Assembly (NCBI GenBank): GCA_003427395.1
Contig: BFEA01000037.1
Coordinates: 2,180,085-2,240,347, forward strand
Source: Chara braunii
Taxonomy: Eukaryota; Plantae; Charophyceae
Reading direction: 5' to 3'
Length of the DNA stretch: 60,263 nt
This document shows, one piece after another, positions 7,021-34,040 of this stretch. How positions within the stretch are numbered: position 1 is the first letter of the stretch; every line of letters begins with the position of its first letter. The notes below the pieces were generated by a model, which saw only the letters and a list, made by a program, of their open reading frames with translations, made no database searches and was not told where the DNA came from. The position numbers were made by a program, and so were the translations under genes.

Positions 7021-7071
<51 letters not shown>

Positions 7072-7999: not shown

Positions 8000-8064
8000 G
8001 TAGGCTTCGATCCCCGTACCCTTCACTTCTAAGGCCAATACCGAAACCTACTGAGCTAGCTCCC
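8000..8064 (-). ncRNA. tRNA-derived Pol III-like cassette (A box and B box) in 3' LTR of element 1
   Basis: Minus strand GGGAGC TAGCTCAGTAGG TTTCGGTA TTGGC CTTAGAA GTGAA GGGTA CGGGG ATCGAAG CCTAC: A box, 7-nt CU-NNN-A loop, B-box-like GGATCGAAGCC. A T5 run follows ~20 nt downstream. Confidence 0.65.
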
Positions 8065-9068
8065 ATTCTTAACAAAATGGGAGCAATTCCTGTACACGTA
8101 TTGCAGTGTGGCCTAGTCCAACTAGTGGACCGGACCCATTTCTAATTTTCTCGTGTTTGTACACTAGTTAGCCTGTGTATCTGTCTAAGCGCTTGTTGGC
8201 TTGAGTGTGCGCAAATGACACTTTCTTGACCGGAAGCCCCGACGGACCGGTACTTTCCCGTGGTTGCGTCATCGAGGGCTGCCGCGAGGAAACACCCAAG
8301 TAGCGGGTAGGCTGATACTATACCTAGTAAAGGTAGATGTACCGAGTACTTGAGGCCGAACAAGCCGGCATTTTGCGTGTCATAGATGTACCCTGTCATA
8401 ACAGTAACCAAATCAACCCCTCGACCTTCCTGGTTGAAGGATATAAGTGTCGATCCTAATTATCACAGTGTGTGTCATAATGATGCACGAGCTCATACGA
8501 AATTCTGAGTTCAGATTAATTCCTTCGAGGTGGTCGGCACAACCGACCTGCCGACTGCAAAATCACGGCCAAATACCCTTGTAAGGGTATTTGGTCCGAC
8601 AGTATCCCAGGCCCTATTAAGCGACGTCTCCATCGCCTGGAGAACTATATGCAAACAAAACATGTTTTCCGACAAACAAATTTGTCAAATCCGAATCCTG
8701 GAATGAAATGTGGTTTAGGATTGACATCGTCACCTCACTTTTCAGTATCCGGGTTTAAGAACACACGTAAGTTATCCCCTGATTTGTAAACCGGCAGTTC
8801 CTCCATGCTCCTTGAGATCTTCTGATCCCTCCTCTGCCCTCCCTTTCTCAAGGTTGGTCCAGAGGGACCTGTCATCCTTCCTCTCTTAGCCATGGCCACT
8901 TCTCTTCAATGGTCACGCCTGCACACAGAGAGGGAGCAATGACAGGTACAAGGATCGACCATCATCATCAAGGCAACACTTCACATCATCAACATAGGCA
9001 TGACAAGACACCCTTCACTTGTGCTTATACATATATATATATATGTATATAGTCATATATGTATATAA

Positions 9069-9175: not shown

Positions 9176-10400
9176 TATTCTCTGATCTTGAATTTCTTCA
9201 GTTTGGACCTCGAAACCAGTCTCTTCTTGGAGTCTCGTCCATTTCTTCCAACTCATAGGCCCCATGGAGTCCCTGTTTCCTGATTCTGAAAGGTCCTAAC
9301 CAACGCTTGTCCAGCTTTCGCGACCACTGTTTTTCCAAAGAAGAGTCATAAAGTAATACAACATCCGCAACTCGTAACGACTCGATTCTCACTCTAGGGA
9401 GTTTGTCCCACCTTTCTTTGTCCCTTTCGCGGTTGTCTGCCACCCTCGTGGCAGCTTCCTGAATCCTCTCTTCCGTGGCGCTGATCTGTTTTGCCCTAAG
9501 GTCCAGTAACTCTTCGAGTGTCAGATCATTCTCCAAGTCCTGCCTGTGCCACGTCTTTAGGAAACTTTTTATCGGGAATGTGGCATGCCGACCATACCAG
9601 AGTGTTGCAGGTGCATACCATGTCGTCCTCTTGACAGTGATATTCTCCACGAAGAACACCGTTCTCAGAAATTTTGGCCAGAGATTCGGCTTCTCATTGG
9701 TCCAGTTGGCTAACAAGTTTCTAATGGTACTATAGCCTCTTTCAACCGACGCATTTGTCTGAGGGTGAGCCTACGTCGTGTAGTTACCTATCATTCCCAG
9801 TTCTTTCAACAGTTCCTTCACTTCCCCATTCGTAAACTCAGACCCCCTGTCCATCGTGCATTCCAATATGAATGGATATCTGAGGTAGTATTCCTTAATG
9901 CATTCTATCAGTGTCACCCCAGTTTTGTTCCTAACGGCCTTGCCATCGATAAACTCGGTAAGGTTGTCTCTTGCATCAAATATATAGTTATACCCACCGA
10001 GTCCCAATGGCATAGCCAGTAGGTCCAAATGGACAACCACCCCCACATCTTTAATGTACCTGGGGTGTAGAGACTCCTTGTATTTGACAGGCGATCGTAC
10101 TTGACAAGGTACACATGATTCACAGTACTTCCGAGTCATCTCAAACATGCCTTTCCAATAGTAGAGTTTCATTGCCTTCTTGTAGGTTGCCGCAAAACTT
10201 CGGTGTCCCCCGACTATCCCATCATGAAGTGCAGCTATGACATCAATCCGACGACTCTTCCTGCATACCACTCGTCTCGGCGGCCCCCTCTTGTCTCTGA
10301 TGAATAAATGGTCACCTCTTACTACATAATGATCTTTCATCCGAAGAGTCTTGTCACTAACTTCTCTTTCTCTTTTATCCCCTGAAAGAAGTAACTTCAT
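9176..10400 (-). pseudogene. Integrase of element 1 (disrupted)
   Basis: ORFs 9771-10400 and 9198-9716: HHCC finger (LHDGIVGGH...CESCVPC), VHLDLL, MDRGSEF, C-terminal KRWLGPFRI. Internal stop and frameshift. Confidence 0.92.
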
Positions 10401-10430
10401 TTCTAGGTAGAACCCATCATAATCCTCTCT

Positions 10431-11690
10431 TCAGAATTTTTCTGAAATCTCTCTTTGCTCAAATTCTTCCTCTTTCTCTTCATCAAACTTGTCTTTATCT
10501 CCGATTGTTATTTCATTTGCCTTCACCATTCTCTCCTCATCATTAGACTGGACTTGTAGAAGGGAATTAGTGAAGTAGTACATTCTCCCCATCATGGCTA
10601 CTTGTTCGTCTGCTTGTCGAGTTCCAACGTCGATCGTCCGTGGTTCATCCACCATCCTATAGTTTTCAACCAAGGTCAATCCCATCATCCACTCCGCATT
10701 CCTTTCTCCCCATGAGTCTTCCTCTACTACTGGCGTGAGTATTAAGGTAGGCTCCCTCATAAACTCAGAAGGAGGATGCCACGTTGGATTCCCTCTTCTC
10801 ATTGTCTTACCTTCAACGAGCATAACCCAACAATTGACATGAGTGCGCATATCATCTCCTTCCTCCAAAAATCCATCTACCGGAGGCGCTTCCTCCCCAG
10901 ATCCTGCTTGATCTCTCCAATCAATTCTACTCATGTCATCGACCCTATTCCTGTTTCCTATAATAGGTTCCAGCTGAAAATCAAACATCCAGATATAGGT
11001 AAGTCATTTGGCTATGGTCGGGTCTGAGGGCGAAAAGTTCTTGAGGGAATACATAAGCGTCGTTGAGGTGCAACATTCATATGAATCAACCTTCTAAGCG
11101 TGTGCATTGCCGCTATAGGACGATCCGCAGAATAGACCGGAAATTGATCGTACCCGGAGTACAGGTCAATAAGGGATACAATCGATCTTCCTGCGCAGGA
11201 TTCTGACAATTGATAAGCGTTAGATAATCCCCCCGCGTCTCTCACGGTCACCGCATTCAACCGTTGGAGGTCTTGTACTTATATGAGCACCCCGTTCGAC
11301 TTTACAAAGCAAAACCAAGGAGAAGCATATGGTCCGCTAGAATATCCTGCGACATTCGTACGAATTTTCCCATCTAGGTATTCCACCACCTTTCTATGAT
11401 CTTCGGGATTGGGGTACTTAGCTCCCCGAACATTCCACGGTTCATGAGGCACAGTATGAATGCGGATCATTTCAATTTTGTCAACGTCTAACCGTCCGCG
11501 TTGGTCATCATTGAAAGCATATGCTCCATGCTTCTCACGTATTTGGTCCTTTACCAAAACCTCTTCTTGCTGTGTCAGGAAACCGGGTTCGCCTGTTATC
11601 AAATCCTTCTTCGTTTCCCTATTGATGCGACAAGGCTCGTTTTTAGTACACTCTCTCATCTGTCGTATCAATTATCTCTCTTGCTCGTAA
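10431..11690 (-). pseudogene. Reverse transcriptase N-half fused by deletion to RNase H C-terminal remnant and linker
   Basis: IRIHTVPHEPW, GPYASPWFCFVK, SLIDLYSGYDQF, MNVAPQ, then a jump to WMFDFQLEPIIGNRNRVDDMSR. The YxDD region is not visible. Confidence 0.88.
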
Positions 11691-11984
11691 TACACCCCTT
11701 CTTCCTGACTTACCATCACTGGTACCGGATGAATTTTCTTGTCTACCGTCTTGTACCACCTTTTGGAGCCCTGCTTGAGCCCACCCCTAAAAAATGCAGG
11801 CCGACAGCTTGTGCATTTGGCATATGTGGCCCTATCATTTGAGGAAGAGGAGGCCGGTAAACAAGATCGATTCTCCCTCCTTCTGGATCTTCCTGGATCC
11901 TTTCCGCAAGCGCTCTGACGACATCAGGGTCCGCCATCCTGTAGGCAGATACCAACTGGACTCCATCACTAATACTTGACAGAC

Positions 11985-12750
11985 TCAATACGACTCCACT
12001 CGCTTCTTCATTGCTGATTCTTCTTCTTCCTCCCATTCGAGTTCTTTTCGCCCATTCTCTGACTCTTCAAACGTGTAAGATACCGCGTTGAGTCGGTTCT
12101 TCAAGCTATGAGGGCCGGTATTTCTACAAGTGATTACCTCAAAATTCCCACAGGCGGGATCACACAAGATAACAAACATGGTGCCATCATGTTTGTTCAT
12201 AATGAGCGACTCAAACCTGCATAAGAAGGATCTGCCTAGCAAAATCGGGAGGTCCAAACTGGGCATAACGTAGAAGCACGTACGCACCTTGACCCTTCCT
12301 ATCTCTATTACAACATTAGAAGCAACCCCCGTGTACCCGGTTTTACCACTCGCTCCATTGAGGAATCCGCAATCGTTTTCATCAACTTCCAACCCCAATC
12401 TCTCCGCAGTTTCTCCATTTATGATATTCATTTCTGCCCCCGTATCAACCATTCTTGGACACATCTTTCCTTTTATCATAACATCTATGCACCCCATCCC
12501 TACGAACTTCCAGTCCATCTTACTTCCCGCAACGCTCCAGTTGATCTCTTTGAGAATCAGGTCTCTTATTCGGCTTGTGGCCACTCTCTTGCGCGACAGC
12601 CTAGCTTTTACCATTTCCCTTAGCCTTGGGGCTAAGGCAAGAATTTCTTTTAGATTCAACAATTCATTGTTGCCTTCCAACAATTTATTCACCAATCCTT
12701 CCAGGTCGACTCCTTCTTGGATCGAAGTCTAGTACTTTCGTTTCTTTGTT
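11985..12750 (-). pseudogene. Retroviral-type aspartic protease region of element 1
   Basis: MVDTGAEMNI and ILLGRSFL motifs in ORF 11985-12695. Confidence 0.92.
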
Positions 12751-13052
12751 GCAGTATCTTCTTTCTTCAATTTCCCTTCCTTGATTCCTTCTTTCCTTCT
12801 CTTGGCCCTAATCTCCGCCTGCTTGTCTTCTTCTTCCCTGATTTTATCGTCTTCGTCCTCATCTCCCTCTACCGTGGTTCTTCCCCAGTCGATTGGGAGG
12901 TCTGAGTTTGTTCCTTTGGATGATTTTCTCCTCTAGGTTTTCGCGTAGCGTATGGAATTGAGCCCCTTACGTTTCTCTGACCCATGCTAATCTTCGCAGC
13001 CATGTTGGCCCTCAACATTTTTGGGTTAGGCTCATTCGGTCCTTCTCCCGAG

Positions 13053-13523
13053 AGAGAAGGTTAACAACAGTCATATTTTTCATCACCACTTCAGGACACC
13101 CTTCACCACTTACAGGATGCAGCCTGCCTAAACAGGTGGTTTTCAGGGTCTTCGAACCTTTCACCACTTCAGGACCATTCAGGTCTGAAAATCCTGACTG
13201 GTCCTGAAGTGGTGAAAACTCTGAAGACCCTGAAAACCACTTGTTTAGGCAGGCTGCATCCTCAAGTGGTGAAGGGTGGTTTTCATGGTCTTCGAACCTT
13301 TCACCACTTCAGGACCATTCAGGATTTTCAGACTGCCCCAAACTTTCACTTGACCACTTCAGGACACCCTTCACCACTTCAGGATGCAGCCTGCCTAAAC
13401 AGGTGGTTTTTAGGGTCTTCGGACCTTTCACCACTTCAAAACCATTCAGGATTTTCAGACTGCCAAAAACTCTCACTTCAGAATTTTAATTCCTGAATTT
13501 TCAGCTACCCGATAACCGCTTAT
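13053..13523. mobile_element. Non-autonomous DNA transposon (MULE-like) with internal ACCACTTCAG repeats, inserted in gag-pol
   Basis: Ends AGAGAAGGTTAAC / GATAACCGCTTAT resemble those of 31589-32450. Degenerate ~9-bp TSD TCTCCCGAG/GTCTCCGAG. Absent from element 2. Confidence 0.7.
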
Positions 13524-15310
13524 GTCTCCGAGTCCTTCGCGTCTCATAGTAAATACTCTCGGATATCCAATCCCTTCTCTTCCAACTTCCTCACATATTC
13601 CGCGAAGCCTTAGATGTAATCTTTGCATTTTATCCACCAGATCCTTCATCATATCAAACGTTTCTCTGACATTGATGCTAACATCCCCCTCCCCCGTATC
13701 TTCTTTAATGACGGGAGTGTTCTCCTTGTTTTCTTTGACCTCCATCCGGCTCATTTTCTCTTCTAATTTCGTTACATCTTCCACATGCACAACATGGTCT
13801 TCCTCTTCTTGCCAAATTCGAAACATTGCCGGAGCGTTGGGGTCAAGTTCGGCCACCCGGAGGGCCTCTTCTCACATGCCGCCCAGAATGTCCAGATCGA
13901 TCATTTTCCCTCTTTTGTCGAATACATCACCATCTATGTTCGAGGTTATAAGTCCGTCGCGTTCATCTAGCTTCCTGATGTGTCACCGTTTTACCGTGTG
14001 CCCTTGGAACCCACAGTGAGTACAAATGCACTCACTGTAATCTATCCATCCTTTGTCGTACCCTTGTCCGTTCCATTGTCCGCTACCTCTACCATATCCT
14101 CTGTCGTAACTTTGTTCGTATCCTCGGCCATACACTTGCTGATATTCTTGTCCCACTTGATTGACACCCACTTGGGGCTGTCCCTAGTTTCCACCTTGAC
14201 CTCCATTTTCTCTATTCCCTGCTCCTCGTTCTCCCGATCCTTGATTCCTTTCTGTGTTCCTTCCTCTTCCACGTCCTTGTCCTTATCCTTGTGATCGATT
14301 CTGGTTTTGACCGCCCTGGCGACTCGACCCTGGTTTATTCTTATTCGCTTGTTGATTCTGCCCCGAGCCTTGCTCTCCTCCCATATTCTGGTTTTGAGGC
14401 ACCATCGGATATAGTCCCTGCGTCGGCCATGGTCCCATTGGGAAATATCCGGGTCATGCACCCATTGGCGGTCCCATGGGCTATTGCCCAAACTGAACCG
14501 TGCTTGTCGATGATTCTTGACCATACGGGACTATCGCTTGTTGAGAAACCTGCCCTTTTCCCGAGCCTTGTCCCCCCATGGCTAAATTTCTAGCTTTCCT
14601 TTAACATTTTATCAACTTGACTGCTTTCTCTGGATCTTCTTCTTCAATCTCGCCTTCTTCTTCTTCTTCTTCCTTCTTCCTCTTCCCTGATGGTTGCGTC
14701 ACTGTTAACACCTTCGCTGGTGACACCCTCTCCCTAAGTTCCTTTATCTCGTTTGCCATGTTGCTCAATACTCTTCCTAACACATTGTCTGTTCCTTGAA
14801 CTGTTCCAGCTGCCTTTCTCTTCCTTCGTTCCACTTTGACCTGGTGATGAAACACTTGATCTAAGTCCCCGGCCGCGATGTTCCACTTAATGGTTCCTAA
14901 GTCGTTTTCCTTCTCGCGGCTCCCCCTCGAGTTAATTCCATGGCCTCATACCCATAGAATTTTCCCAGCAATATGACGCACTGCATTTCTTCGGACAACC
15001 CTGGGACCCTTTCGGCTGTCTTTCCAAAGGCATTGGCAAATGCCCCGATCGTGGTGAAATCATCCCTGTTCATATTATAAAGGTGTTCGACTGTGAGCAA
15101 ACCGTCCCCTAATTTAAACTTCTTTTGCATGTCTTTCTTAAATTATGTCCAATCATCATTGGCCTTCTTTACAACTTCTTCCACGTCTGGCTTGCACTCC
15201 CGCCATACATATTCGTATAGCTGAGCAAATTTATCCGCTGAAGTCAACTGATTGAAGATCTGTTCAAGTAACTCCAACCAGTGAGATACTCTTTCTCCTT
15301 TGAATTGTTT
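13524..15310 (-). pseudogene. gag of element 1 (N-terminus missing, frameshifted)
   Basis: FKGERVSHWLELLEQIF, DDFTTIGAFANAF, G/Q-rich tract, zinc knuckle CTHCGFQGHTVKR. Colinear with element 2 gag. Confidence 0.85.
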
Positions 15311-15329
15311 AGTTCGTCCAGAGGTACCC

Positions 15330-16080
15330 AATCCTCGTGCCAAAAGTTTCTAACCATACCAAACAATGAGGGAATATAATCTAGAAAGACCTCGATACAC
15401 ACTTCCTTACAGAGCTTGCGCCAATACGTCAAGCGATCTTCTAGATGACAGGTGCGTAGATACGCATTTACGATATATAGGACATTATAGAAGTCCCTTT
15501 TCGTCAGTTTTGGCCCCATCTCTAAGTGCAAACAGTAAATGACATCAGACGCCTCAAACTCGAAACTCATCTCAGACACTGATTGAGCTGCGAGTACTAC
15601 TCATTCCACATTCTCTATTCCCCAAAATGCCTCGTCAATTATGAACTTGGGAAGGGTGGTTTTAACATTCATTGTTGGATAAGCGAATTTAGTCGCCCAT
15701 TTTGCCTCAATCGATCGTATGACCTCTCCTTCTTCCCCCCAGTACATCTTTCGTGAAAAGGTTTCAAGTATCAATCCTGCAGCTAGAATACACTTGGAAA
15801 TCGGTCGGCTTTCTCCTATCGCAAGGTCAATCACGTGGGCCTTCCAGAGGAGAGTTGATAGGTATAAGGTCATTCTTACTATCGCACNCCTTTCCTCTGT
15901 AGTCCAACCAGTTTCTACCTAGAGAAAAGCTTCAGGTCTTATTGGTACTCCACACCATGTATTTATCTTTTCTCCTTCCTCCACCCCTCGTCGGGGTAAT
16001 GTCATCTTAATTCCTCCATCTCTCTGCTCAGGCTAGTTAATTAAGAAGTATTGGCCAGCGAACCATATTCCAGGTGTCAT
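15330..16080 (-). pseudogene. Accessory ORF copy B (unknown ~250-aa domain) upstream of gag
   Basis: ORFs 15601-15873 and 15244-15579 (MTLYLSTLLWKAH...TTLPKFIIDEAF...YCLHLEMGPKL) align with 38493-39240. Confidence 0.8.
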
Positions 16081-16199
16081 TTGATACCCTGTTTACACAA
16101 CCATACAAAGAACAACTTTTACTTTTTAGTCGATTATCCAATTCCTTTAGGCATAATTCCAACTTTCTTATTTCCTAATCTTACCATTTTTCCCTAGGT

Positions 16200-16920
16200 C
16201 CCTAAGTGAGGAGCATCATGTCTCACTATCAAGCTTGAAAGAGGATTACCCGTCGTAATTTGTCCCAATAGTTAAGCCTATCTGCCAATTCGTATCTGCG
16301 AGCATATGAGTCGATTTGTAGTACTGTGCTTAGTAACTCTCTTTCCTCAATTGGATGTCTTATCTCCAGGTATAAGTAGTATATCAATAATGAAGTGAAC
16401 TAGTGATATTCTTCTTCGAGTACCGCCAACGTGGCTTCCGCAGTTTTTTCTACTCGCGTCCGCCCCCTAAAGGCTTCATTCACGATAAACATAGGAAGAG
16501 TTTCTCTTAGGTATGCCGCCGACGAGAGGAATTCACACGCCCTTTTTACTTCTACTGTTCCTATAACTCTTTCAAACCCATTCAGATGCGCGTCCCGGCT
16601 TCGAGTGTTGAGTGCGGATTCCGCAAGCCACATTAACCTCGCAAGAGATCGATCTATTCCTAAGGCTAAGTTTATTATGAAAGCCTGCAAATATTTCGGC
16701 GAAAAATACAATGTAACTCTTTCTATTGCACAATTTTCGCCTTTGATCCATCCAGACTCAATCCAGACGAGGGTATGCTCCCCCATAGATTTCCCCCAAC
16801 AACACCCTGTTTCCTCATTCCATCATTAGACCGCTCCTCATCTGTCTGGGTTCTCTGATCGCGAACTGGTACCGAGCAGAAGCCATCTTGTTCTTGTTGA
16901 TATACTCCGCCTATTTGCTG
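16200..16920 (-). pseudogene. Accessory ORF copy A (paralog of copy B)
   Basis: ORF 16400-16786 (VWIESGW...RVTLYFS...ETLPMFIVNEAF) and its read-through (YYLYLEI) align with 37381-38106 and with copy B. Confidence 0.75.
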
Positions 16921-17838
16921 CACAACACAATCCAACCCACTTTCCCTTCATTTAGATATCACTAAGATTGACAGCTTTGTTTGTCAAGCTCAGGATCAAG
17001 CGGCCACCTTTATTTTGTCAAATTATCGTGCCCTTTTTCGGCTTTCATATAATCTTTCTATATAATAAGTAGGATACCAGCCCACAGATTTCTACCTGGC
17101 ATACCAAAACATCAAGAGTGAGATACATAATTTCTTGTGAGGCGACGTAGATTGGGAAACAACAGGAGGGTCTGAGACGTGCGGCGTTGGCTGTACTGTT
17201 GATAAGCGTGGCTAAGGAAGGATCGTCAGCTGCCTCTCTTGAGCCGAGGAAGACAGCGGTGTGTAAGGTCTGAGGCGAGGTCGGCTAGGCGGTTCAAAAC
17301 GCGGTGGATACGCGCCGTAACGCCTCTCATATTTATAAGAATAGTAAGTCATCTTCCCAGACGAAGGAGTGCGTTCACGTCATTCCTCCTGATGCTTACG
17401 TACTCTCAGCCCTTCCTCCTTCTCCCTTAGTCCTTCATCTTTTTCTTTCTCCAATTTTCCTCGTTCTTTGGTCAAATCTATGGTTCTTTCGGTCGTTTTT
17501 CCTAACCTTTCGCTTCTTCCTCTCCCAGCACCGGTCCCACGACCTTTGGGTGTCATATTAAAATGCGGACACGGTTTAATCAATGCAATCCTAGGAGCTA
17601 TGCGACCTATCACTCTTGACCTTCGAACGGCCTCTGATAACCTTGAATTATTCTCAGAGGGTTATTTCTTTACTTCTAAGGTGATTCTTGTCGATAGTAG
17701 CCCCACATATACTACTAACCCACTCTTCACACTTCTAACTCAAGTTTTAGCCTAATAAGCTTTATCTGTCATTTTGCCTGGATCATCTACTTATCGCACC
17801 CGAGTCCGTTCACTAAGGACCTCGGCTTGGAAGCGAGA

Positions 17839-17856
17839 TCCCCGGCAACGGCGCCA
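17839..17856 (-). promoter_or_regulatory. Primer-binding site complementary to tRNA-Asp 3' end
   Basis: Minus strand reads ...CGACA GG TGGCGCCGTTGCCGGGGA, the complement of the plant tRNA-Asp 3' end UCCCCGGCAACGGCGCCA. Confidence 0.92.
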
Positions 17857-19450
17857 CCTGTCGCGCGAGGCAGTCCCACACCCAGACGCAAAGTAATTTT
17901 TGTGTCGGACCTCAAGGTCGTATTATGCAGGAGTCTTTTGTCGCCTTAGCAAAACACCACTCCGACCGTGCGCGCGTGCTATACCTCTTGCGAATCCCCA
18001 CGACGGGTTAAAGATCTCTTAGGTGGGCGTATCCCTACTGAGCTATCGACCCATGTGCGAAGGTTTTTACATACAATTACAGAGGTAGACCAGCCGATGA
18101 CGTTTTTCTTGATCGCCGTAGCATAGACATACGAGCGGTAGAACGCCTTAAGACTGACCCGTATATCGTGCCCCGAGGTACTAACTCCCTCGGACCGAGT
18201 ATTCTTATCAGGTCGACTTTTCCGGAAAGTCTTCCACGCTCAGCTAAAATATGATAACGAATTTATGTTCATTCGTTGATCATACGAGAAAATGCCAAAC
18301 TCCGAACCCTTTTGTAATCTGTCACTCTCTCAAGATCTCACAGAATGCTAGACAATAACCTTCCTAAGCCCAGACCAGAGTATGGACTTGTTCGTTGACA
18401 TATATAAGTACATATGTATACCAGGGGAGCGAATGAGCGGTGGACTTCACTTTCACAATTGTGGTGCCCTGTGTCTGAATATCCCAGGTGACCTTAAAGT
18501 CCAGAAAAGACAGTCCATTGCCCAAACTTGTGCAGATGCAAGAAAACACATACACGCATACAAATGCAAACACAGAATGCGCTACAAGTGTCAACCTTTA
18601 ACCCATTCATAGCAAGTCCCTCACTCCCCAAAACCTTGAAAACGACACTCCTTCCTACTCTTGGCTCCTATTACCTAGCCCTTCAACCTTTCAAGGACCT
18701 TCAAGGGATGATTTGGGCAATTTAGGCTAAGATACAGGGGAAGATTTGTCCGTCTCTCTTTTTAGGTTTTGTCTTAGGTGTGGGTGTCAAGCCATGTGGA
18801 AGTTGAGTCGGAGTACTACCGACCTGTTATCCAATGACAACACAATTGCAGTTCCTTACAGTTTTCTTCCATAATCTTCCCCAAGAGTGACGAAATATGT
18901 AGACACAGCACAGTCCGAAAGAAACTTAACATCCTTTTTCCTATGCTGGGGTCTAGAAGATCCCTTCTAGACTTGTGACCTAGAGATCAATGCTCATAGG
19001 TGACCCACTGTCTAGCCTTTATCCTTACCCAACTGCCAGGTTGTTGCCTTATGGGTTTGGGTAATGAACAAAGTTCATCCCCAAATCTTCCAACCTAGTG
19101 ATCCCACGTAAGTTTCCCTCTAAGACAGCTTACCGAAGACCCATTTTTGGTTTTCTCTTTAGCAAGCACAAACAATACCCTCAATTCATCTTAGAGAAGA
19201 ATCACATGATAGAAAACAAATCACAAGATCCAAAATAGAGTGACAAGTCTCTCAGGGTCAAGATCTCATTTATCCTCTCTTCAATAGAATCACAAACAGT
19301 CTGTTAGTAATTGATTGATCCAAATTTATTTCAGAAGGTTAGTAGTAATATGGTAGACCGCTCGGGATCTTCTCATCGTCTACTTGTGATAGGGTAGACC
19401 TTGAGGGTCTTACTTCTCCTATTCACTTTCCTACATTAGAACAACGTCAG

Positions 19451-20891
19451 ATGATATTAAGGCAGGCTTCTCGGAGCCTCGCTCACTCTTATCACATTGT
19501 TCTTTATCAGTATAGTGATAAGGCAAGCTTCATCGAGCCTCGCTACTCTTATCACATTGATCTTAGTTATTTCAGTGGTAAGGCAGGTTTCTCGGAGCCT
19601 CGCTCCTCTTACCACATTGATCTTAGTTATTTCAGTGGTAAGGTAGGCTTCTCGGAGCCTCGCTCACTCTTACAACATTCTTCTTAGTTATTACAATGGT
19701 AAGGCAAACTTCTCGGAGCCTCGCTCTTCTTACCACATTGATCTTAATTATTTTAGTGGTAAGGCAGGCTTCTCGGAGCCTCGCTCACTCTTACCACATT
19801 GTTTCTTAGTTATTACAGTGGTAAGGTAGGCTTCTCGGAGCCTTGCTCCTCTTACCACATTGAAATTCGTTATTTTAGTGGTAAGACAAGCTTCTCAGAG
19901 CCTCGGTCTCTCTTACCACATTGTTTCTTAGTTATTACANNNNNNNNNNNNNNNNNNNNNNNNNNNNNNNNNNNNNNNNNNNNNNNNNNNNNNNNNNNNN
20001 NNNNNNNNNNNNNNNNNNNNNNNNNNNNNNNNNNNNNNNNNNNNNNNNNNNNNNNNNNNNNNNNNNNNNNNNNNNNNNNNNNNNNNNNNNNNNNNNNNNN
20101 NNNNNNNNNNNNNNNNNNNNNNNNNNNNNNNNNNNNNNNNNNNNNNNNNNNNNNNNNNNNNNNNNNNNNNNNNNNNNNNNNNNNNNNNNNNNNNNNNNNN
20201 NNNNNNNNNNNNNNNNNNNNNNNNNNNNNNNNNNNNNNNNNNNNNNNNNNNNNNNNNNNNNNNNNNNNNNNNNNNNNNNNNNNNNNNNNNNNNNNNNNNN
20301 NNNNNNNNNNNNNNNNNNNNNNNNNNNNNNNNNNNNNNNNNNNNNNNNNNNNNNNNNNNNNNNNNNNNNNNNNNNNNNNNNNNNNNNNNNNNNNNNNNNN
20401 NNNNNNNNNNNNNNNNNNNNNNNNNNNNNNNNNNNNNNNNNNNNNNNNNNNNNNNNNNNNNNNNNNNNNNNNNNNNNNNNNNNNNNNNNNNNNNNNNNNN
20501 NNNNNNNNNNNNNNNNNNNNNNNNNNNNNNNNNNNNNNNNNNNNNNNNNNNNNNNNNNNNNNNNNNNNNNNNNNNNNNNNNNNNNNNNNNNNNNNNNNNN
20601 NNNNNNNNNNNNNNNNNNNNNNNNNNNNNNNNNNNNNNNNNNNNNNNNNNNNNNNNNNNNNNNNNNNNNNNNNNNNNNNNNNNNNNNNNNNNNNNNNNNN
20701 NNNNNNNNNNNNNNNNNNNNNNNNNNNNNNGTGATAAGGCCGGCTTCTCGGAGCCTCGCTACTCTTATCACCCTGTTACTATCATTGTGGTGATAAGGCA
20801 GGTTTCTCGGAGCCTCGCTTACTCTTATCACCATTGTTAGAGACATCATTGTGATAAGGCAGGCTTCTCAGAGCCTTACTACTCTTATCAC
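19451..20891 (-). repeat. Hairpin-repeat/linker array in 5' LTR of element 1 (8 units, gap, 3 units)
   Basis: ~60-nt period. Outer stem switches between GTGATAAG/CTTATCAC and GTGGTAAG/CTTACCAC. Confidence 0.92.
19940..20730. other. Assembly gap inside hairpin array (other gaps at 32055-32174 and 50779-51458)
   Basis: Runs of N, all inside tandem repeats. Confidence 0.99.
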
Positions 20892-23800
20892 ATTCGTGTC
20901 ACTCGAGCCCTGGATCATTCGAAGCTTTTAAGATCACGAGGGTAGGCCATACGAGACTTGTACCCCATGTCTTAAATTCATCAGCATGATCACCGGCTGT
21001 GTTAGTTTGGACCTTTGGGGAGTATGCAGGCATAGGTCAAGCGTTAGTTGATGCAGCCAATCTTCATAGTATTCGACCATAGCATGCACAAGTCTTCAAT
21101 CCACTGCGAACCTCATCCCTTATCACTGGTCAGGTGGTCTATTAAGCAAGGGAAGATTGCACAAAGTCAATCCCCCTTGCTCCCACTCCCCCAGAAGAAA
21201 CGTTCACACAGCGAGACAGTTGCTCAGAAGTTCTCGTTCTCGCTATCTTTACCAACAACAGTTAGTCAAGTCTGGTCAGATCTTTTTCATGCAATCGAAT
21301 TTCTTCATGCTTCCCTCTTCCAAACATTTTCTCTTTCCCTAGTCTTCGGGTTTAGTCCTGAAGGATCCATGATGCGACGTACCCTCCTTATTAATACAGT
21401 CATAGGTAGTTACCTGAAGGTTATAGATTTAGGGTTTAGGATTTATGGTTTAGGGTTTTGGTTGAAGCGTGCGTACCTCGTTGTTCCGTGCCTCCAGAGT
21501 TCCGCCTGAACTCCAGTAGAGTTCCCGCAATCGCCTTGTCATTTGGATGCGTCTAGACTAACCAAGTATTTCAAACAGAATCGGAGTTTCTTGTGTTTAA
21601 GTGAGCAATTGAAAACATCATCTTCACATTTGCTTTTGAAAGATTGGTGCGAGAAAGGATTAGTCCTAGGAAAGGCGGAGGAGGATGAGGGAGGTAGAAG
21701 CCATCACTCTTTACGACGATCCTCCCCTCTTTACTGCCCCGCACCCTTCCCACCTCTGCACCCATTCTGGTATGTAATATCAAATGCTTATAATAATAAT
21801 AATATTAGTAACAATAATAATAGTAATAATAATAATAAATAATTACAATAATAATCATCGTAATTAATAAGCGAAAATGATATTCAAAGAATAATAATAT
21901 TTGATCTGGCGCAAAGTATCCACATAAATTCAAATTCTTGAACCTGGTCAAAAATACAGTAAAATTCATCTTTCTTTTAATCATGGTTGTGGTACCCAGC
22001 ACTAAACACTGTTTTTGTGCATTACAACACTTTCTAATCCAACTAGGACCTATCCTGAATGTCCCCCACACACACGTGCATACACACGCTTGCTGATGCG
22101 GCAGTTATGGGTACTCCCTTTCTTCTGCAGCTAGTTGTAGGCCATGACCGACCTACATCCTCTCAACTTGCTTTGACCTCGGCCCTTGCATACTCCCGCA
22201 CACCAGGCACTCCATTTTATTGTTGCATGGTACATAGGCAGTGTGGATGAATGCAATTCTTAGTGCATCGCGGTCTGGTCCTCTCGACCTAGGGCCAGAC
22301 GTGCTAAGTCCCACTTGGAACCTGCAAACCGGATCAAACTGACACGGGTTTAGGGACTACTAGCTGGACTTAGGTAGGATTGTCCCTTTTTTTTTGCCAT
22401 TGTATCAGCTGCTGGCCAATTGGACCCTTTCTTGGTACTCGATTCTGCTGGCATATTACCCTTATGAGGCGGCCAAAAGTTCAACCCCACGCAGCCCTCA
22501 TACCTAGAATGATCCCAAAACAGACAATCTTTAGGGGCAGGTCACGGTTTTGACCACACACGAACCACACTATATCGTACACGGGGTCAGGAATCGGCCC
22601 TGGGGACAGCGACAGTCTCATGCTTGGGTGAATTTGTATTGGTTCACATTAATAACATAATAATAATAATAATAATAACAGATTAAAGTTGAAAATGATA
22701 GTGAAACGGAAATAATAATATTCGCTATGAACTGCACAATTCATCACCGAAGAGCGCACATACATACATACAGCACCCATAAGTGAGATGACACGATTTC
22801 CACAATGGGTGCAAGAGAGTCACAGCCTATGAATTCCAGCCCATTATCATCAAAGCAAGCTAAGAGTTTGTGTCACCAACGCTCATCGGCGCGCGTGCAG
22901 GTAACCGGAGACCAGCACCACCATCCGGGTGAGCTCCTTGCATGTTTTCCTCCCTCTCTCTCTCTGTCTGGTTCCTTTCCCTAGCATTGTCCTTACCGTG
23001 TCTCTTCTCCCTACAAACATGCATACTCACAACTACCACACAAGGTTTCTACTCTGGACACACCCACTACTATGCTTATAGTTTCCCCCACTGTCTAGTA
23101 TTAACACTCTGTATTAGCGCAGCTATGGCTGCCTTCTTCCTACCAGCGCAACTCTCTCCCCCCCTTTCACTTATAACATTCTGTCCTCAGCGCTCTAACC
23201 CTTGCTTTTGGCGCACGAGTGCCTCATCACTTCCATGCTTGCAGCAAATGAGCATTTTGTCCGAATAGGAGGCTGGTCAGTCCTTACCTTGTTTTAGGAT
23301 GTCACTGGGTTATCCCATCTTCTGTAGCAAATGACCCAAGTTGGCCTGGTACCGCGTGCCCACTTCCTGTTTGCTTCAGAAAGTCATGGTCTGTTACTTT
23401 TCCCATTGTCTGAGTCTATGAGTCACCACTTTCGTCTGCGGCTCATGACTTTTGACTGGGAGAGTGACCTTTCCATCTGGGTCACGACCCTTGTATGTTT
23501 CTGTCTGTTCTGTCTGTCCTTGCCTGTTTCCGTTTGATTACTACGTTTCCGACCTGTCTCCGTCTATTCTGCCAGTCTTTGTTTGTTTCTGTCTATTTTC
23601 CTCCTACCTCTTCTCCCTCTTCACCTCTTCTCTCTCATGGCCATCCTTGTCCTTTTCACGCACCTCCTACGAGAGGAAATGAGCAATAGTGAAACTCGGA
23701 ACCCATGTTGCATTTTACATATGAAAACAAGTAGTCGTGACCTCGAATAAAGAGCAGAATTACAGTTCGATTAGCACCAATATTACATCAATGGGGAGCA

Positions 23801-24892
23801 AATAGCGAGATGACCAAATCCATATTGCTAATCACATTCGAGAGTCAGAACGTACCATAGTATCCAGAAAGCAATATTGCACCAATATTACATCAATGGG
23901 GAATGAAAACACTAAAAGCGACTGTTAGTGAGATCTCTCTCTCGCTCTCTCTCCATCACCATGGTAAGTACCCAGGTCCTTCTCTTTATTTGACGTTCGA
24001 CGCCCAAGCTACTCCCTACACCGTTGTTTCCCACTCGCAATTAATACTATAATCGATGACATTGGCAGCCACCGAAGTACTTGAGGAGATTGCTCAGCGC
24101 AGATAACCATCAAACCAGGTATTGTATGATACGTACCTGACCATAATCACTGCCGAATAATAATAATGATAACAATAATAACAGGGTGCCAGATAATAAT
24201 AATGATAACAATAATAACAGGGGTAGTAGTAATAATAATAATAATATAAATTAATTAATAATGATGGATAACAACGTATACAAATGTCATTCTCGGTCCG
24301 ATGCAACAAGCTGGGCACACGACAAGAGCAGCTCAATCTTCGAGAGGTTAGGCAAATGGCAGGGTAACCTTTACAATGTGTTCGGCGGATTTATGTCCAC
24401 GTCTCTCCACCTTTGCCCTCATCTATTCTCTTCCTCTTCTTTCTCCTCCTCTCTCTTTCCTCCTTCTTCCTTCCACTACTTTCTTCTTCTTCTCTCCTCG
24501 TTTCCTTCTACCTATCAGTAGCGTTTCGAGTGTAATCCGCCTGAAACAGTTAGTTTCTACCCTTTTTTGGTATTGGTATAATCTTAGGCCATCATTAGGT
24601 GAGTGCACGTGTCATTTGTATGTGAGAGGTGGTGGTCTCAGATACCTCTGTTCAACTTTCATATCAGCAACTCTCTTACTCCCTTCGCTCTCACTTCGCT
24701 TTCTCACTACTCCTCCACACACGACTAATGGCAGGACGTGCATCGCATTCGATTAGCAACTGAAGCAGCAATAATGTTAATAATCCGATTGCAATCATCG
24801 TATATAAGCCATTTTTCTAGCCAGATATAATCGTGATATTATGAGTGAAATAATAATAAAATAATAATAGTAAAATAATAATAGTACAATAC

Positions 24893-24927
<35 letters not shown>

Positions 24928-26857
24928 GTGCGCAAAAGGAAACGAGCAAGAGCGAAACAATAATGTACAGTTATGTTGAATGCCCGATCGGATCACTGTG
25001 CTCGGAAAACAACATTGCCCCAATAAGACACCAATGAAGAATTGTAATCCTGAACCAATGTCAATGGAAGATTGTTCCAGCCACTACCAAAATATCATGG
25101 CCCTTCTCTCTACTGAGCTACTATTATCCTCCTAATTGACAACGCTGGTATTGACGTCAGTGACCACCGAAGTACTTTGGAGAGGTCGCCCGTAACAGAC
25201 CATCGCCACTACCAGGTATATGCCTTCTCATCTTCATCCCCCATCTTTCTCGTTTTCTTACACTCACACACATATAATGATACACACGCACATACACATA
25301 CACACTTACGACTGGCAATCCCGCTGCCGGGCCGGAGTGAAGGCGCGACAGTGGCGGGCGCAAGTGGTGGCGTATATTCTTATGTTGGAGCGGGAGATTC
25401 ATTTGATTTTGCTTCTCCTCTTTCCTCCGCAACGCCGCATGATCCGATCAGCCTACCGAGAACACATTACGTCGGAGATATGGCAACACAAGTGCGCTCT
25501 CCAACAAGGTCGAACTGATGACAAGTTCATCCTCGCTTACGGTAAGTAGCGGATGAGGGGTCACGGCAATTTGCACTATTGCTGCATGGTGTCGCCCGGA
25601 TGACAAAAACCGCATTCCTACCTACCAAATCGCTTCACCTCCCAATTCAAAAGCAGTGGAACCACATCGCAGCACGTTCCTAGCAACTAAGTCCGATAAT
25701 GACTGTATATTTGTTATCAATCCGACCCGATACAGTCGTGAGGAAAGTGTGTTACATTCCGAGAACGGCAGCGCAACTACACGGTTTAAAGGAAATGGTG
25801 CCATCGACCAACCGATAGGTGAGCCAGGTAAACTTCCTCATCCATTTCTCCTTCTTCTCCTTCTTCTTCTTCCTCTTCTCCTCTTTTCTTCTCCTTCTTC
25901 TTCTTCTTTTTTTTCCTTTCCTTCACGAGTTTTCTCCTCCTCTCCCTGTTTGTAATCTCGCTCGTCTTTCCTTTTTCAGTTCGTTTCGAGTGTACGTGGC
26001 CTAAATCGCAGTCAGGTTCAGTCAGAATGAAGGTGAGTTCTATTCAAGGGAAACGATCGTTTTCCTTTCTCGTAATCGTTTTCTTTCCTTTTGCTTTCCT
26101 CTCTCCTTTTCCGTTCTCGTCTATTTTCACCTCGACTTTCTTTCTTCTTGCGTTCGAACTCCTCCTTCTGTGTCCGTCCTCCTTTTTGAGTGTTTGTGCC
26201 CTCATCTTCCTCACTTGCATCCTCCTCTTTGTTTCCTCCTTGTCAAATGTACGTAGTCACACTTCACCGCCAAATGTATGGTTTTAATAAAACAATAATA
26301 TTATTATGATTGAAATAATAATAACAATAAAATAATAATAATAATAATAATAGTAATAATAACGATAATAATAACAATAATATTAGAGATAACGGATGTA
26401 TACATCTTATCTCTCCGGTCCGATACATGTAGGAGAAGCATGGATTTCTCTTTAGAGAGAAATACACGGGATTGGAGACGATCGGGAGTATCTGACGTGG
26501 TAAGTTTCCCTCTTCTCCTCACCTCTCTCTTCTCCTCACCTCTCTCTTCTCCTTACACGATCCCTTCTCCTTCTCATACAAACACATACTCACACGAAGC
26601 TGCAACACAGATTTTTTAATTTTTAGACATAGGTTCGTTTGGTTTCATTCGTTTTGTGGATATAATCGTCATGATGTGAGCCGCGAGATTGGTGCAGCCC
26701 ATATGCCCACACTTACGCACTTCGCACACGCGTGCCCATGCACACACATGCAGGAAGTAATGTATGTTTCCGTAGTCGGCGGTAGGCTTATTCAATTTGT
26801 TTTTATCCTGTTGGTGGAAGTTCCATGAGGTTCGTAGTAAGGTTAAACTTACATGCA

Positions 26858-26933
<76 letters not shown>

Positions 26934-27880
26934 TGAAGCAACGTATACATCGATACTCTAGAGGTAGGTTCATTCGTGTGATGGGAGACTTACCTTGCAA
27001 CGAGGATGCTGGGCTGTGGTCGCCTGCACTATTGCTCCCCGATGCCACTCAAATGGCAAGGAGTGTTGATTCTCCTAACTGAGTCACTATACCTCGCAAG
27101 GCAACCACGCCCGGAATGCGCCGTTGTATTTGAACCCACTACCACCGCGACAAGGCGCAATCGCTTTCCCTAGACCTTACAGGATGAGGATGCCAAGGCT
27201 AGGAGTAGAAAACAGGTAAGTTGCCTTCACCTCCCTCCTCTCTCCTCTTTTTCCTTCTTCTTCTCCTTCTTCTCCTTCTTCTCCTTCTTTTTCCCTCTTT
27301 CTCGTTCGTCGCTCTCTTTTCCCCTCCAAGCCGTGCTCCCTCTCTTCTCCTCTGCGTGTCTCCCTACTGCGCACCGCCTCCCTGTTCGTTCGCCAGCCGT
27401 TCCCGGTCGTAGTGTCCCGCTCTGTCAGCTTTCTCACTCTCATCCCTCCATGCGCCCACCTCGCTATTGATTTCTGTTGTTCCCCATAGTCCCCTTTGTT
27501 TTTTCCTTGCACCGTGTCTCTCGCGTTTGTGCAAGTAATCCCATTTGGTGCAGTAGCCCCGAGCGACCGGTTTGATCGCTACCTTAGCCAGCCCGTTGCA
27601 AGCTCCCTAGGATAAACCTGCCCCGACTCCGAGCGAAGATTCACTAACAGTGAATCTTTGAATCAACAAAAATCTCGGAAAAGAAAAAAAACAAAAGAAA
27701 ATCTAACTACTATCCGCCCAGTCGTTCCAACTGTCAGTTACCTGTCACAGGGGCGGAGCCCTTATGCTTCAAGCCCAACTACTTTCAATCTGCAGATCGC
27801 GAGTTCGAGTCGCTGCTACCCAAGGTGGGGGCAAAATACTATTGAGCTTCATGTCAAAATGGAGCTAGTCTCGGTGGCCG

Positions 27881-27944
27881 GTAGGCTTGATCCCCGTACC
27901 CTTCACTTCTAAGGCCAATACCGAAACCTACTGAGCTAGCTTCC
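27881..27944 (-). ncRNA. tRNA-derived cassette, 5' LTR copy (1-nt deletion in B box)
   Basis: Paralog of 8000-8064. Confidence 0.6.
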
Positions 27945-29497
27945 ATTCTTGACAGAATGGGAGCAATTCCTGTATAGGTATTAAAGTGTGGCCTAGTCCA
28001 ACTAGTGGACCGGACCCATTTCTAATTTTCTTGTGTTTGTACACTAGTTAGCCTATGTATCTGTCTGAGCGTTTGTCGGCTTGAGTGTGCGCAAAGGACA
28101 CTTTCTTGACCGGAAGGCCCGACAGACCGGTACTTTCCCATGGTTGCGTCATCGAGGGCCGCCGCGAGGAAACACCCAAGTAGCGGGTAGGCTGATACTA
28201 TACCTTGTAAAGGTAGATGTGTCGAGTACTTGAGGCCGAACAAGCCGACATTTTGTGTGTCATAGATGTACCCTATCATGACAGTAACCAAATCAACCCC
28301 TCGACCTTCCTGGTCGAAGGATATCAGTGTCGATCCTAACTATCACAGTGTGTGCCATAATGATGCACGAGCTCATACGAAATTCTAAGTTCAGATTAAT
28401 TCCTTCGAGGTGGTCGGCACAACTGACCTGCCGACTGCAAAATCACGGCCAAATACCCTTGTAAGGGTATTTGGTCCGACAACACGCAGAGGTTGGAAGA
28501 GCTTGCGCGGGGGTAGTGCACGCTCGACCGACTGGAGATGGCTCGAGGGAAGTAGAGGAGAAATTGTGCGGTGAAAGCAGGTGTGGTAACACGAAGGTGG
28601 AGCGCGGGCAGAAGTGGCTGCGCGCAACAATGAATGAAGGAGATAGTGCGTGGGAGAAGATCGAGAAGGGGGTGACAACACGGAGGAAAGAGATGGCCGC
28701 ACGGTAGAAGGAGAGCGTGGGAAGGTAGCGCAAGCGGGCAAGAAGAAGAATAGTTGCGCTAGTAGGATGAAGAAGATAGCATGGTGCGTGGATCGCAAGG
28801 GAAGCAGAGCACACAAGAGCAGAGCAAGAAGGAGATGGCCGCTCGGTGAATGAAAAAATACAGTGCGCGACTGCAGGCGATGGCAACTGGGAGAATAGCG
28901 ACATAGCGGGGGAAGGAGAAGAAGTAGAAGGGAGAAGAAAAAGAAGTAGAAGGGAGAAGAAGAAGAAGAAGTAGAAGGGAAAAGAAGAAGAAGAGGAAGG
29001 AGAGATAAAGAAGAAGAAAAAGAAGAAGAAGAAGAAGAAAAAGAAGAAGAAGAAGGACAAGAAGAAGAAGAAGAAGAAGAAGGAGAGAGGCCAGGGAAAT
29101 GTGACTTACCCGTCACCCGGCCGGCATGTTGGAACGTGGGCTTGTGTCGGTCGAGCTCTGTGCGATCGTCACGGAATGTTGCACATTGCTGCGGAGCGGA
29201 AAGCAGCCAGCTTTCAACGACAGGGGCGGTGACGACGACGATGACAAGAGAGAGATCAGCTAAGTCTTCTATCAAGCAACAAGCACCGGGTTCTTCGATC
29301 GATAGAGTGAACAGAGACTAATGAACCTATCACTAGAACATGGGAAGTCTACACTATTGCTATGTGTGTGTGCGAGTGAGTGTGTGTGTGAATCGCGGTG
29401 AGTTTCATACTAATGCCATCGACAGGATGAGCAAAATCGAATGAATGTACAGCAAAAACACGAAAATATATATCACAAAGTGCATCCGTGCATATGC

Positions 29498-31588: not shown

Positions 31589-32450
31589 AGAGATGGTTAA
31601 CGGGTGCATATACTTTCAGGTCTCCTTTTCAAGCAGTTCAGCCACTTTAGGTTACTATACCACTTTCAGATTATGTGTGGCAGTTGTCTGAAACCGCTTT
31701 CAGATTGTCTACAGATCCATTGCAAATGGTGGGATGGGGGTACCTGAAACCCTTTTCAGAAGCTTCAGCCACTTCAGCAGTTTCAGATCCCCACCTGAAA
31801 TTTTTGAAATGGCCTGAAGTGGTTGAAGCTTCTGAAAGTGGTTTCAGGTACGTACCTGAAACCCCTTTTAGAAGCTTCAGCCACTTCAGCGGTTTCAGGT
31901 CCCCACCTGAAATTCCTGAAATAACCTAAAGTGGCTGAAGCTTTTGAAAGGGGTTTTAGGTACCCCCATCCAACCATTTGGATGAGGGTACCTGAAACCC
32001 CTTTCAGAAGCTTCAGCCACTTCAGCGGTTTCAGGTCCCCACCTGAAATTCCTGNNNNNNNNNNNNNNNNNNNNNNNNNNNNNNNNNNNNNNNNNNNNNN
32101 NNNNNNNNNNNNNNNNNNNNNNNNNNNNNNNNNNNNNNNNNNNNNNNNNNNNNNNNNNNNNNNNNNNNNNNNNNGGGGTTTCAGGTAACCATTTGGATGA
32201 GGGTACCTGAAACCCCACTCAGAAGCTTCAGCCACTTCAGCGGTTTCAGGTCCCCACCTGAAATTCCTGAAATTACCTGAAGTGGCTGAAAAAACAGGCA
32301 GGAAAAAAAAAAAAAAAAAAACATAAAACTTGTCCTTCAAACCACCCAAAATTTCTGAAACGACCTGAAGTGTCTTCAGGCCATTTCAGCGGTTTCAGAC
32401 CACTTCAGAATCTTTCATTCTGGAATTTCAGGTGGTCGTTAACCACGAGT
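31589..32450. mobile_element. Non-autonomous DNA transposon (MULE-like) with internal CCACTTCAG/CCTGAAA repeats
   Basis: Perfect 10-bp TSD GTCACTTCCG (31579-31588, 32451-32460). Short inverted ends containing TGGTTAAC/GTTAACCA. Confidence 0.85.
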
Positions 32451-32618: not shown

Positions 32619-32691
<73 letters not shown>

Positions 32692-33567: not shown

Positions 33568-34040
33568 GGTAATAAGAGGAGCGAGGTACCGAGAGACCCG
33601 TCTTATTACCTGAATCTGCCTTTGTGGTAATAGGAGGAGCGAGACCCCGTGAGGTCTGCCCTATTACCAACCCACACAAAAGAGGGGTGTAATAAGAGTA
33701 GCAAGGCTCCGAGAAGCCTGCCTTATCGCAATAATTGCACGGACGGTGTGATAAGAGTAGCAAGGCTCCGAGAAGCCTGCCTTATCGCAATAATGGCACG
33801 GACGGTGTGATAAGAGTAGCAAGGCTCCGAGAAGCCTGCCTTATCGCAATAATGGCACGGACGGTGTGATAAGAGTACCAAGGCTCCGAGAAGCCTGCCT
33901 TATTACCCGCCAGCGGTGCTTCAATGCAAACAGCGGTAGGAGGAGCAAGGCACTGAGATGCCTGTCCTATTGTCCAGCCGCATGGATAAAGGAAGTGGTA
34001 GTAAGAGGAGCGAGGCTCCGATAAGCCCGCCTTATTACCA
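33568..34040 (+). repeat. Hairpin-repeat/linker array in LTR of element 2 (8 units)
   Basis: GTGATAAG AGTA GC A AGGCT CCGAGA AGCCT GC CTTATCGC and covariant forms. Confidence 0.92.

Follow-up and report, generated by a model that had tools for sequence, protein, structure and literature searches.

A tandem array of bulged hairpins at a shared position in the long terminal repeats of two divergent Chara braunii retrotransposons: an apparently undescribed element, possibly acting as RNA

Tandem repeats in the long terminal repeat (LTR) retrotransposons of plants have been noted for decades, and their origin and function are stated to be unknown (PMC11963269). Two described systems come closest, in place and in form respectively, to the one reported here. 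Sireviruses, which are Copia elements, carry many hairpin-capable motifs in a fixed region of the LTR, shared across divergent families and variable in copy number (PMC4728375); in maize there are ~7 palindrome motifs per Sirevirus LTR (Bousios et al. 2016, PMC4728375). Retand elements are large Gypsy elements with accessory open reading frames (ORFs) and have variable-number tandem repeats in their non-coding parts (PMC11963269). Here we describe a tandem array of hairpin units in the LTRs of two decayed retrotransposons, E1 and E2, of the alga Chara braunii. The window analyzed is a stretch of 60,263 nt of contig BFEA01000037.1, and all coordinates refer to it.

The Chara array differs from each of these systems. 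Sirevirus palindromes are short, symmetric and GC-rich, are poorly conserved in sequence, and lie in the upstream half of a ~1.3-kb LTR (PMC4728375). In contrast, the Chara array is a regular 60-nt tandem of an asymmetric, bulged hairpin with a conserved loop, and it lies in the 3' third of a 10.6-kb LTR of a Gypsy element. Retand repeats are outside the LTR and family-specific in sequence, whereas the Chara core is common to families (PMC11963269). The Retand paper uses none of the terms 'hairpin', 'stem-loop' and 'secondary structure' (PMC11963269). CRM-derived satellites, unlike the Chara array, are whole LTR-UTR segments (PMC3648361). Rfam gave no match at gathering score in the whole window. 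At E up to 10 there were seven chance-level matches (E 0.25-10) in 33000-35900, none of them to TAR, IRE, CTE, RRE, a snoRNA or a ribozyme. A literature search, which took in neither supplements nor the Chara genome paper, found no description of the array. It is a real, structurally specific and apparently undescribed LTR element.

We found the array at the same LTR position in both elements. In the 5' LTR of E1 (LTR1, minus strand), the first three units are at 20731-20892 and the last eight at 19456-19922, separated by an assembly gap of 791 N (19940-20730). The 3' LTR of E1 contains three units and the beginning of a fourth (1-191, minus strand). The LTR of E2 (LTR2, plus strand) has eight units (33565-34042). 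Both arrays run in the gag-pol sense direction of their own element, and their 3' ends are 1.60 kb (LTR1) and 1.77 kb (LTR2) from the LTR ends, in agreement with the initial annotation, which had placed them in sense orientation ~1.6-1.8 kb from the end. BLAST matches between LTR1 and LTR2 are confined to the array plus ~300 nt behind it, and to the terminal 380 nt. The annotation had also called for a comparison of unit order between the two LTRs of E1, and the first three units are identical in order. Since the 3' LTR repeats this order and goes on into a fourth unit, the array was copied with the LTR and the gap conceals further units. If the gap size is right, it holds ~13 units, and the ~24 units that had been estimated for LTR1, against 8 in LTR2, come to 23.8 by arithmetic. 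An unfiltered scan of the whole window with a covariance model of the core (E up to 1) gave 30 matches. Twenty-five were in sense in the three LTR copies (20 of these are training rows); the other five were weak antisense matches on the same hairpins, and there were none elsewhere in the window. A degenerate 31-nt core pattern had no matches in metagenome contigs and none in viral contigs.

The unit has a defined structure. Its 41-42-nt core starts from a lower stem of 8 bp, followed by a purine-rich bulge of 4-5 nt in the 5' arm, 2 bp, one unpaired purine, and 5 bp capped by a hexaloop. Every unit fits this plan, with predicted fold energies of -8 to -18 kcal/mol. The larger bulge is AGUA, AGGA or AGUGA. 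The loop consensus is CYGAGA, mostly CCGAGA, with CUGAGA in 3 of 19 units. Unpaired positions match paired ones in conservation: the first and last A of the bulge and the single bulge purine are present in 19/19 units, as are C1 and A6 of the loop, and G3 and G5 in 18/19. K-turn, H/ACA, miRNA and sarcin-ricin readings of the unit were dropped by inspection; there is no opposing GA and the stems are too short.

The stems covary. When 15 pairs were tallied in each of 23 units, 310 of 345 cells held a Watson-Crick or G.U pair (288 and 22, respectively), and the remainder were A.C (15) or other combinations (20). In a set of 20 units (the first degenerate unit of LTR1, described below, plus the 19 units that make up the visible arrays of both 5' LTRs), double-sided changes were found at 8 of 15 pairs, one of them a double transversion. 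Relative to the commonest pair, four changed from A-U to G-C and four in the opposite direction. The compensatory swap that had been reported for LTR1, from GTGATAAG/CTTATCAC to GTGGTAAG/CTTACCAC, is present in 6 of 11 visible units of the 5' LTR1, all among its last eight, and in 0 of 8 LTR2 units; its G.U intermediate is found in 2 of 8 LTR2 units. In the 20-row alignment, two rows of which are misregistered and in which the relatedness of rows inflates the statistics, 85.8% of cells pair. The covariation score of this alignment was reached by 0 of 500 shuffles, slid structures scored lower, and the number of doubly changed pairs was reached by 3 of 500. The units are likely to have been under selection for an RNA structure.

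We found that conservation is a property of the core and not of the linker, and that linkers and copy number are family-specific, as had been proposed. Between families, the mean identity of cores is 79% and the best is 93% (88 unit pairs). Linkers (63 pairs) are 41% identical, compared to 42% +/- 1 for shuffles. Linkers are 17-26 nt long. Their GC content is lower in LTR1, at 11-21% for the proximal block and 32-39% for the distal units, than in LTR2, at 44-58%. LTR1 linkers are wholly different, as stated earlier, and the description of them as AT-rich holds best for the proximal block. Because the linkers are unrelated, exchange of whole arrays between families, which the initial annotation had named as an alternative, is excluded. 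Exchange of bare cores followed by re-amplification is possible, although the collinear flanks (see below) would fit descent instead.

Contigs from two genomic runs of the same species (X1 and X4) were aligned at 80% likeness. Contig depth on four LTR1 cores was 39-89-fold (X1) and 28-74-fold (X4) that of the median flank bin, where depth is not copy number and is inflated by short overlapping contigs. Loose contig ends and joints revealed many linkers that are absent from the window, and LTR2 had the same pattern. The robust result is that far more sequences contain the core than contain any one linker or flank.

The array grows by tandem duplication. The proximal block of LTR1 is built as a dimer of 121 nt. 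In LTR2, three 59-mers that are 98% identical occupy mid-array, with diverged units at both edges. Linkers were duplicated together with their hairpins. There is no polarity, and the polarized gain or loss that had been considered was not borne out; this is how ordinary tandem arrays expand. These properties leave little room for a cassette array of the CRISPR or integron kind, whose fixed repeats would be the hairpins and whose acquired spacers would be the linkers. The constant hairpin, the variable linkers of similar length and the many linkers genome-wide are what such an array would have. But linkers that alternate as dimers and duplicate with their repeats are not, and 7/7 tested linkers match only their own array copies in the window (up to 2 mismatches). 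Nor was there a recombinase, nuclease, integrase or Cas-like domain associated with the repeats among the scanned ORFs. We regard this explanation as already largely refuted and hardly tenable.

Plain tandem growth is also what a neutral minisatellite would show. In this explanation, which we consider fairly unlikely, an ancestral palindrome duplicated itself, covariation came from palindrome repair and decay of methylated C, and identity between families came from template switching or gene conversion. The distal cores of LTR1 differ from the middle cores of LTR2 at 3 positions, the same as among themselves, and tandem arrays with no assigned function are common in Retand elements (PMC11963269). 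One LTR type in the window has no array. Exchange or drift would, however, treat cores and linkers alike, yet the linkers are at shuffle level and contig depth follows the cores. In addition, asymmetric bulges are present in every unit, whereas palindrome repair would probably have erased them. The flanking degenerate units are collinear and ~57% identical, as predicted by vertical descent.

The flanks were conserved more widely than had been described. Downstream of the array, the initial annotation had noted a conserved block of ~130 nt; we found such a block and its true extent is ~300 nt (19150-19455, minus strand, in LTR1; 34043-34355, plus strand, in LTR2), with 186 of 329 columns identical. 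The block begins with degenerate copies of the hairpin. LTR1 has a complete degenerate unit at about 19385-19426 (minus strand) with three double changes, and a remnant with the upper stem and a CCGAG loop at about 19350-19375 (minus strand), recognized in both families by eye and alignment. Upstream, the weakly conserved leader that had been reported is present at 20895-21290 (minus strand) and corresponds to 33060-33480 in LTR2, with 200 of 423 columns identical. The flanks are collinear, with identities of 57% downstream and 47% upstream. The leader additionally holds a single hairpin of the same plan and different sequence, ~350 nt before the array (21204-21251, minus strand). Its copy in the 3' LTR (501-548) was found by a structure-only scan and then folded; the covariance-model match of this hairpin is circular, as it was a training row. 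The covariance model missed the upstream hairpin of LTR2, the first degenerate unit of LTR2 and both second remnants, so these rest on alignment by eye.

Both flanks contain the motif YTRAY, which we take to resemble the branch-point consensus, at aligned positions of the sense strand. Four are shared downstream (of 5 in LTR1 and 9 in LTR2) and five upstream (of 10 and 11), compared to 0 shared on the antisense strand. Random patterns of like degeneracy reached these counts in 0.4% of cases downstream and 0 of 2000 upstream, for a pattern that was picked post hoc after TACTAAC had been noticed.

Several other features adjoin the LTR1 array. Telo-box-like, degenerate plant-telomere tandem repeats are located ~550 nt upstream (21426-21458 and 727-758); they are bordered by splice-donor-like words and absent from LTR2. 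Both families have a (TTA)n microsatellite ~0.9 kb before the array (21790-21855 and 32623-32710). An antisense open frame of 153 codons, which may be due to chance, lies just upstream in both LTR copies (345-806 and 21048-21509, plus strand).

Based on these results we tentatively suggest, and would call it close to an even matter, that selection has maintained the array as a multivalent docking site on RNA, by which the full-length transcript is helped to remain unspliced and to be exported or packaged. A segment of the LTR is inherited only if it is retained in genomic RNA. Because this segment must stay in genomic RNA and is flanked by branch-point-like motifs, its role would be to keep the RNA unspliced, and several same-strand ORFs of the element would need spliced messages. 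Because the stems covary, the bulges and loop are fixed, and the linkers are free in sequence but nearly constant in length, the array would be a row of protein-binding hairpins. The bulged inverted repeats would probably fold as hairpins in the sense RNA rather than in DNA. The features read by a protein would be the CYGAGA loop and the purine bulges; the linkers would serve only as spacers of ~19 nt, and copy number would tune avidity. The array might in this way protect and route unspliced genomic RNA. The partner could be encoded by the element itself, with ORF0 (described below) or Gag as candidates.

There are precedents for such a function. RcRE is in U3 of HML-2 LTRs (PMC11379458), and CERV belongs to Cer1 of C. 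elegans (PMC10309623). Like the Chara elements, Rec/RcRE, CERV, the RTE of IAP and the MTE of MusD combine a structured non-coding RNA element with a short accessory protein (PMC12786077). One of these, RcRE, is inside the LTR, as is the Chara array (PMC11379458). All need genomic RNA to be kept unspliced, and the Chara elements have the same need. In contrast to the array, the export elements are single complex folds and not tandem, and there is no likeness in sequence or in Rfam.

Several results weigh against the docking-site reading, among them the limits given above for the 20-row alignment, for contig depth and for the choice of YTRAY. Units share ancestry, so unit counts are not independent. 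All double changes but one are transitions, and the four in the direction of G-C to A-U could be explained by decay of methylated C. The number of pair types in the 20-row alignment falls short of significance, being reached in 53 of 500 shuffles. The excess of G.U over A.C, a test of strand, is 22:15 over 23 units (p 0.16); it is 18:8 (p 0.04) once three degenerate units are removed, a post hoc choice. Antisense cores fold about as well as sense cores. The view that the array reflects selection rather than neutral drift is supported in part: selection on an RNA structure is likely, but transitions dominate the double changes and the strand test is weak. Four of eight cores had low contig depth, because contigs go to the best-matching unit. 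A third LTR type in the window (~50535-43413, minus strand, start inferred) shares its terminal ~400 nt with LTR1 and LTR2 and had no array copy in the covariance-model scan (E up to 1). Thus the array is not universal in this group of LTRs: its position is fixed in LTR1 and LTR2, and one of three LTR types lacks it. In plants, the NXF1 route is said to be lacking, and according to a 2025 review there is no direct study of the export of plant LTR-element RNA (PMC12786077).

RNA reads were too few to inform this reading. From three oligo-dT runs, 6-13% of each was sampled. Reads on 32720-37200 numbered 9, 252 and 23, and the array was covered in one run only, at a depth of 1-5 and in both directions; 203 of the 252 reads were <90% alike. 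On 19040-19939 there were 36 and 0 reads in two of the runs. With few reads sampled, we found no splice joints and no piles of read starts or ends.

The array could instead act as duplex DNA, an explanation that is unlikely but a real contender. Inverted GATAAG half-sites, multiplied in tandem much as VANC targets or Sirevirus LTR palindromes are, would be bound by a dimeric transcription factor or by an anti-silencing protein encoded by the element. The innermost bases of the lower stem, TAAG/CTTA, are nearly invariant, the array is in the LTR, and the elements encode accessory proteins of no recognized family. Raising motif density by tandem repeats is the mechanism of VANC, whose targets in VANDAL DNA transposons are, as here, multiplied by tandem duplication in the non-coding parts of elements with accessory proteins (PMC5735166). 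The VANC motifs, duplex words of 8-9 bp, vary from one family to another, in contrast to the covarying inverted repeat that is kept across families in Chara (PMC5735166). Both arms of the Chara repeat change together, GATAAG itself is replaced in 8 of 19 units at one position, and the spacer retains a bulged second stem that a duplex site would not need. The 5' and 3' arrays of E1 differ at 3 of 164 nt; none of these differences is a transition, a pattern expected under low methylation. We do not use this low divergence as evidence because three other 164-nt bins of the E1 LTR pair are as little diverged (4 of ~45 bins in all), and the gap next to the array may have made it an assembly effect.

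Resemblance to HIV-1 TAR raises another explanation, in which hairpins in the nascent RNA, a short way past the start site, recruit an elongation factor of the cyclin T/CDK9 type, perhaps through ORF0, for passage through a silenced unit of ~20 kb. TAR and the Chara unit are both hairpins of an LTR, bulged on the 5' side and closed by a C-Y-G-R-G-A hexaloop; the TAR loop is CUGGGA and the UCU bulge of TAR is bound by an Arg-rich peptide (PMC11885821, PMC3894171). ORF0 begins Arg/Gly-rich in both elements. TAR is single, is located at +1, and has a pyrimidine bulge and a U-A-U triple, whereas the Chara hairpin is present in 8 to ~24 copies with purine-rich bulges, A-G-(U/G)-A and a single G/A. 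TAR acts at the very 5' end, and the start site of the Chara element was not located. With no TAR-family match in Rfam at E up to 10, we consider this explanation quite unlikely.

The hairpins might also be a source or decoy of small RNAs, being diced or absorbing small interfering RNAs (siRNAs), as proposed for Sirevirus palindromes. Those palindromes are hairpin-forming siRNA hotspots and the only contact across families (PMC4728375). This is very improbable for the Chara array: its 8+2+5-bp stems, with the fold energies given above, fall far short of the -40 kcal/mol applied to Sirevirus, and its conservation is in the loop and bulge.

Returning to the docking site, a bolder version would have Arg-rich ORF0 bind an expandable array whose number of hairpins sets the escape of full-length RNA from splicing and its export or elongation. 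Such a device would be like Rev/RRE or Tat/TAR, built from a satellite and present in many families. We think this bolder version unlikely. As a docking site in general, the array would be a first candidate for an RNA control device in the green lineage. If the binder were encoded by the element, there would be a pair of accessory protein and RNA element in a streptophyte alga, with copy number as a dose knob. The clean split of a conserved, structured core from free linkers makes the 41-nt unit usable for probing, pull-down and reporters.

Accessory ORFs are located between the primer-binding site (PBS) and gag in both elements. ORF0 (17062-17556, minus strand; from 36451 in E2) is short and decayed, with three stops, an Arg/Gly-rich start and a charged, Pro-rich body. 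The E1 and E2 copies are 52% identical over 85 aa, and differences by codon position are 25/17/43 (81 codons), third positions changing most. No homolog was found among 83 candidates and there was no Pfam match. Both copies (17062-17556, minus strand, and 36451-36735) have kept the word IDLT, which we take to resemble a SUMO-interacting motif, and a conserved YYSYKYE...PPRFEPP stretch. Two tandem, decayed accessory domains of ~230 aa follow (15310-16850, minus strand; about 37387-38103 and 38469-39240 in E2). The domain is known from Chara proteins only; 8 of 10 matches of one accessory ORF are Chara braunii proteins. There was no longer homolog among 991 candidates, no Pfam match and no Atlas match. 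Its structural model has a pLDDT of 50 and no viral-structure match under E 0.001; the best PDB match, to gelsolin-like domains, has a Z of 5.2, which is within the noise range. ORF0 and the accessory domains are tied to the array solely by location in the same element.

E1 is a decayed Ty3/gypsy LTR retrotransposon on the minus strand. Window self-comparison and end contexts place its 5' LTR at 17859-28481 (minus strand; 10.6 kb including the 791 N; ends TGTCG...CGACA) and its 3' LTR at 1-8601 (minus strand), where the window edge cuts through the array; the remainder of this LTR and any target-site duplication fall beyond the window limits. LTR1 is 90-94% identical to 28-8601 over three blocks in this self-comparison, and the Kimura two-parameter distance (K2P) of the pair is 0.058-0.071. 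A PBS, presumably of the tRNA-Asp type, is at 17839-17856 (minus strand) behind the 5' LTR, with its E2 equivalent at 35814-35831, both read from end contexts. E1 thus has direct LTRs, TG...CA ends and a PBS, and its internal region extends from the PBS down to 8602. The coding region (9198-15263, minus strand) is decayed and has the Ty3/gypsy order of gag, protease, partly deleted reverse transcriptase (RT)/RNase H, and integrase. Protease and integrase have Pfam matches, gag a weak one (E 0.04), and RT/RNase H remains as remnants, read by eye without a Pfam match. One integrase homolog was found among 157 candidates, a Chara braunii protein. A search of metagenome contigs with integrase gave 64 pattern matches and 0 confirmed. 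E1 as a whole is ~31 kb, with LTRs of 10.6 kb or more, and exceeds the size range of 4.4-24.1 kb in a survey of plant elements (PMC6317226).

E2 is a second element, on the plus strand and also decayed, without RT/RNase H. LTR2 ends at 35811 and the PBS begins at 35814. The start of LTR2 was not found in the window; the LTR may be interrupted by E1, as suggested by a flip in skew at 28.5 kb. K2P between E1 and E2 DNA is 0.45 for protease and 0.35 for integrase.

The third LTR type (43413-50535, minus strand) is probably a solo LTR of 7.1 kb that has inverted ends of 7 bp and was inserted behind the E2 integrase. Its flanking 4-mers differ by two C-to-T changes. The terminal ~380 nt (17859-18240, 35390-35811 and 43576-43838) is the best-conserved part of all three LTR types, at 70-85%. 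In LTR2, contig depth is highest in this terminus, which also gives a strong fold signal ~170 nt before the LTR end. It is likely a structured U5 element. The putative third LTR contains a hairpin array of a different kind, at a distance of 3.3-3.8 kb from the LTR end (46757-47202, minus strand). This array has about eight units of 53-54 nt with a GC-rich stem capped by GGAA, and part of it also reads as an open 18-aa repeat. Candidates for its nature are an analogous device, a coding repeat and the end of a DNA transposon.

Further repeats were seen in the window. The 3' LTR of E1 has two insertions of its own, of ~0.5 kb (1192-1700) and ~0.4 kb (3597-4025); the first has internal inverted repeats and resembles a miniature inverted-repeat transposable element. 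Palindromic tandem repeats are found at 31723-32400 (112-nt period at 31740-31963) and 13085-13478; one set adjoins a gap of 120 N and the other is inside E1 gag-pol. Satellite-like arrays with units of 172, 91-92 and 53 nt are located at 50582-52455 and 57014-59505, and the 172-nt block is duplicated.

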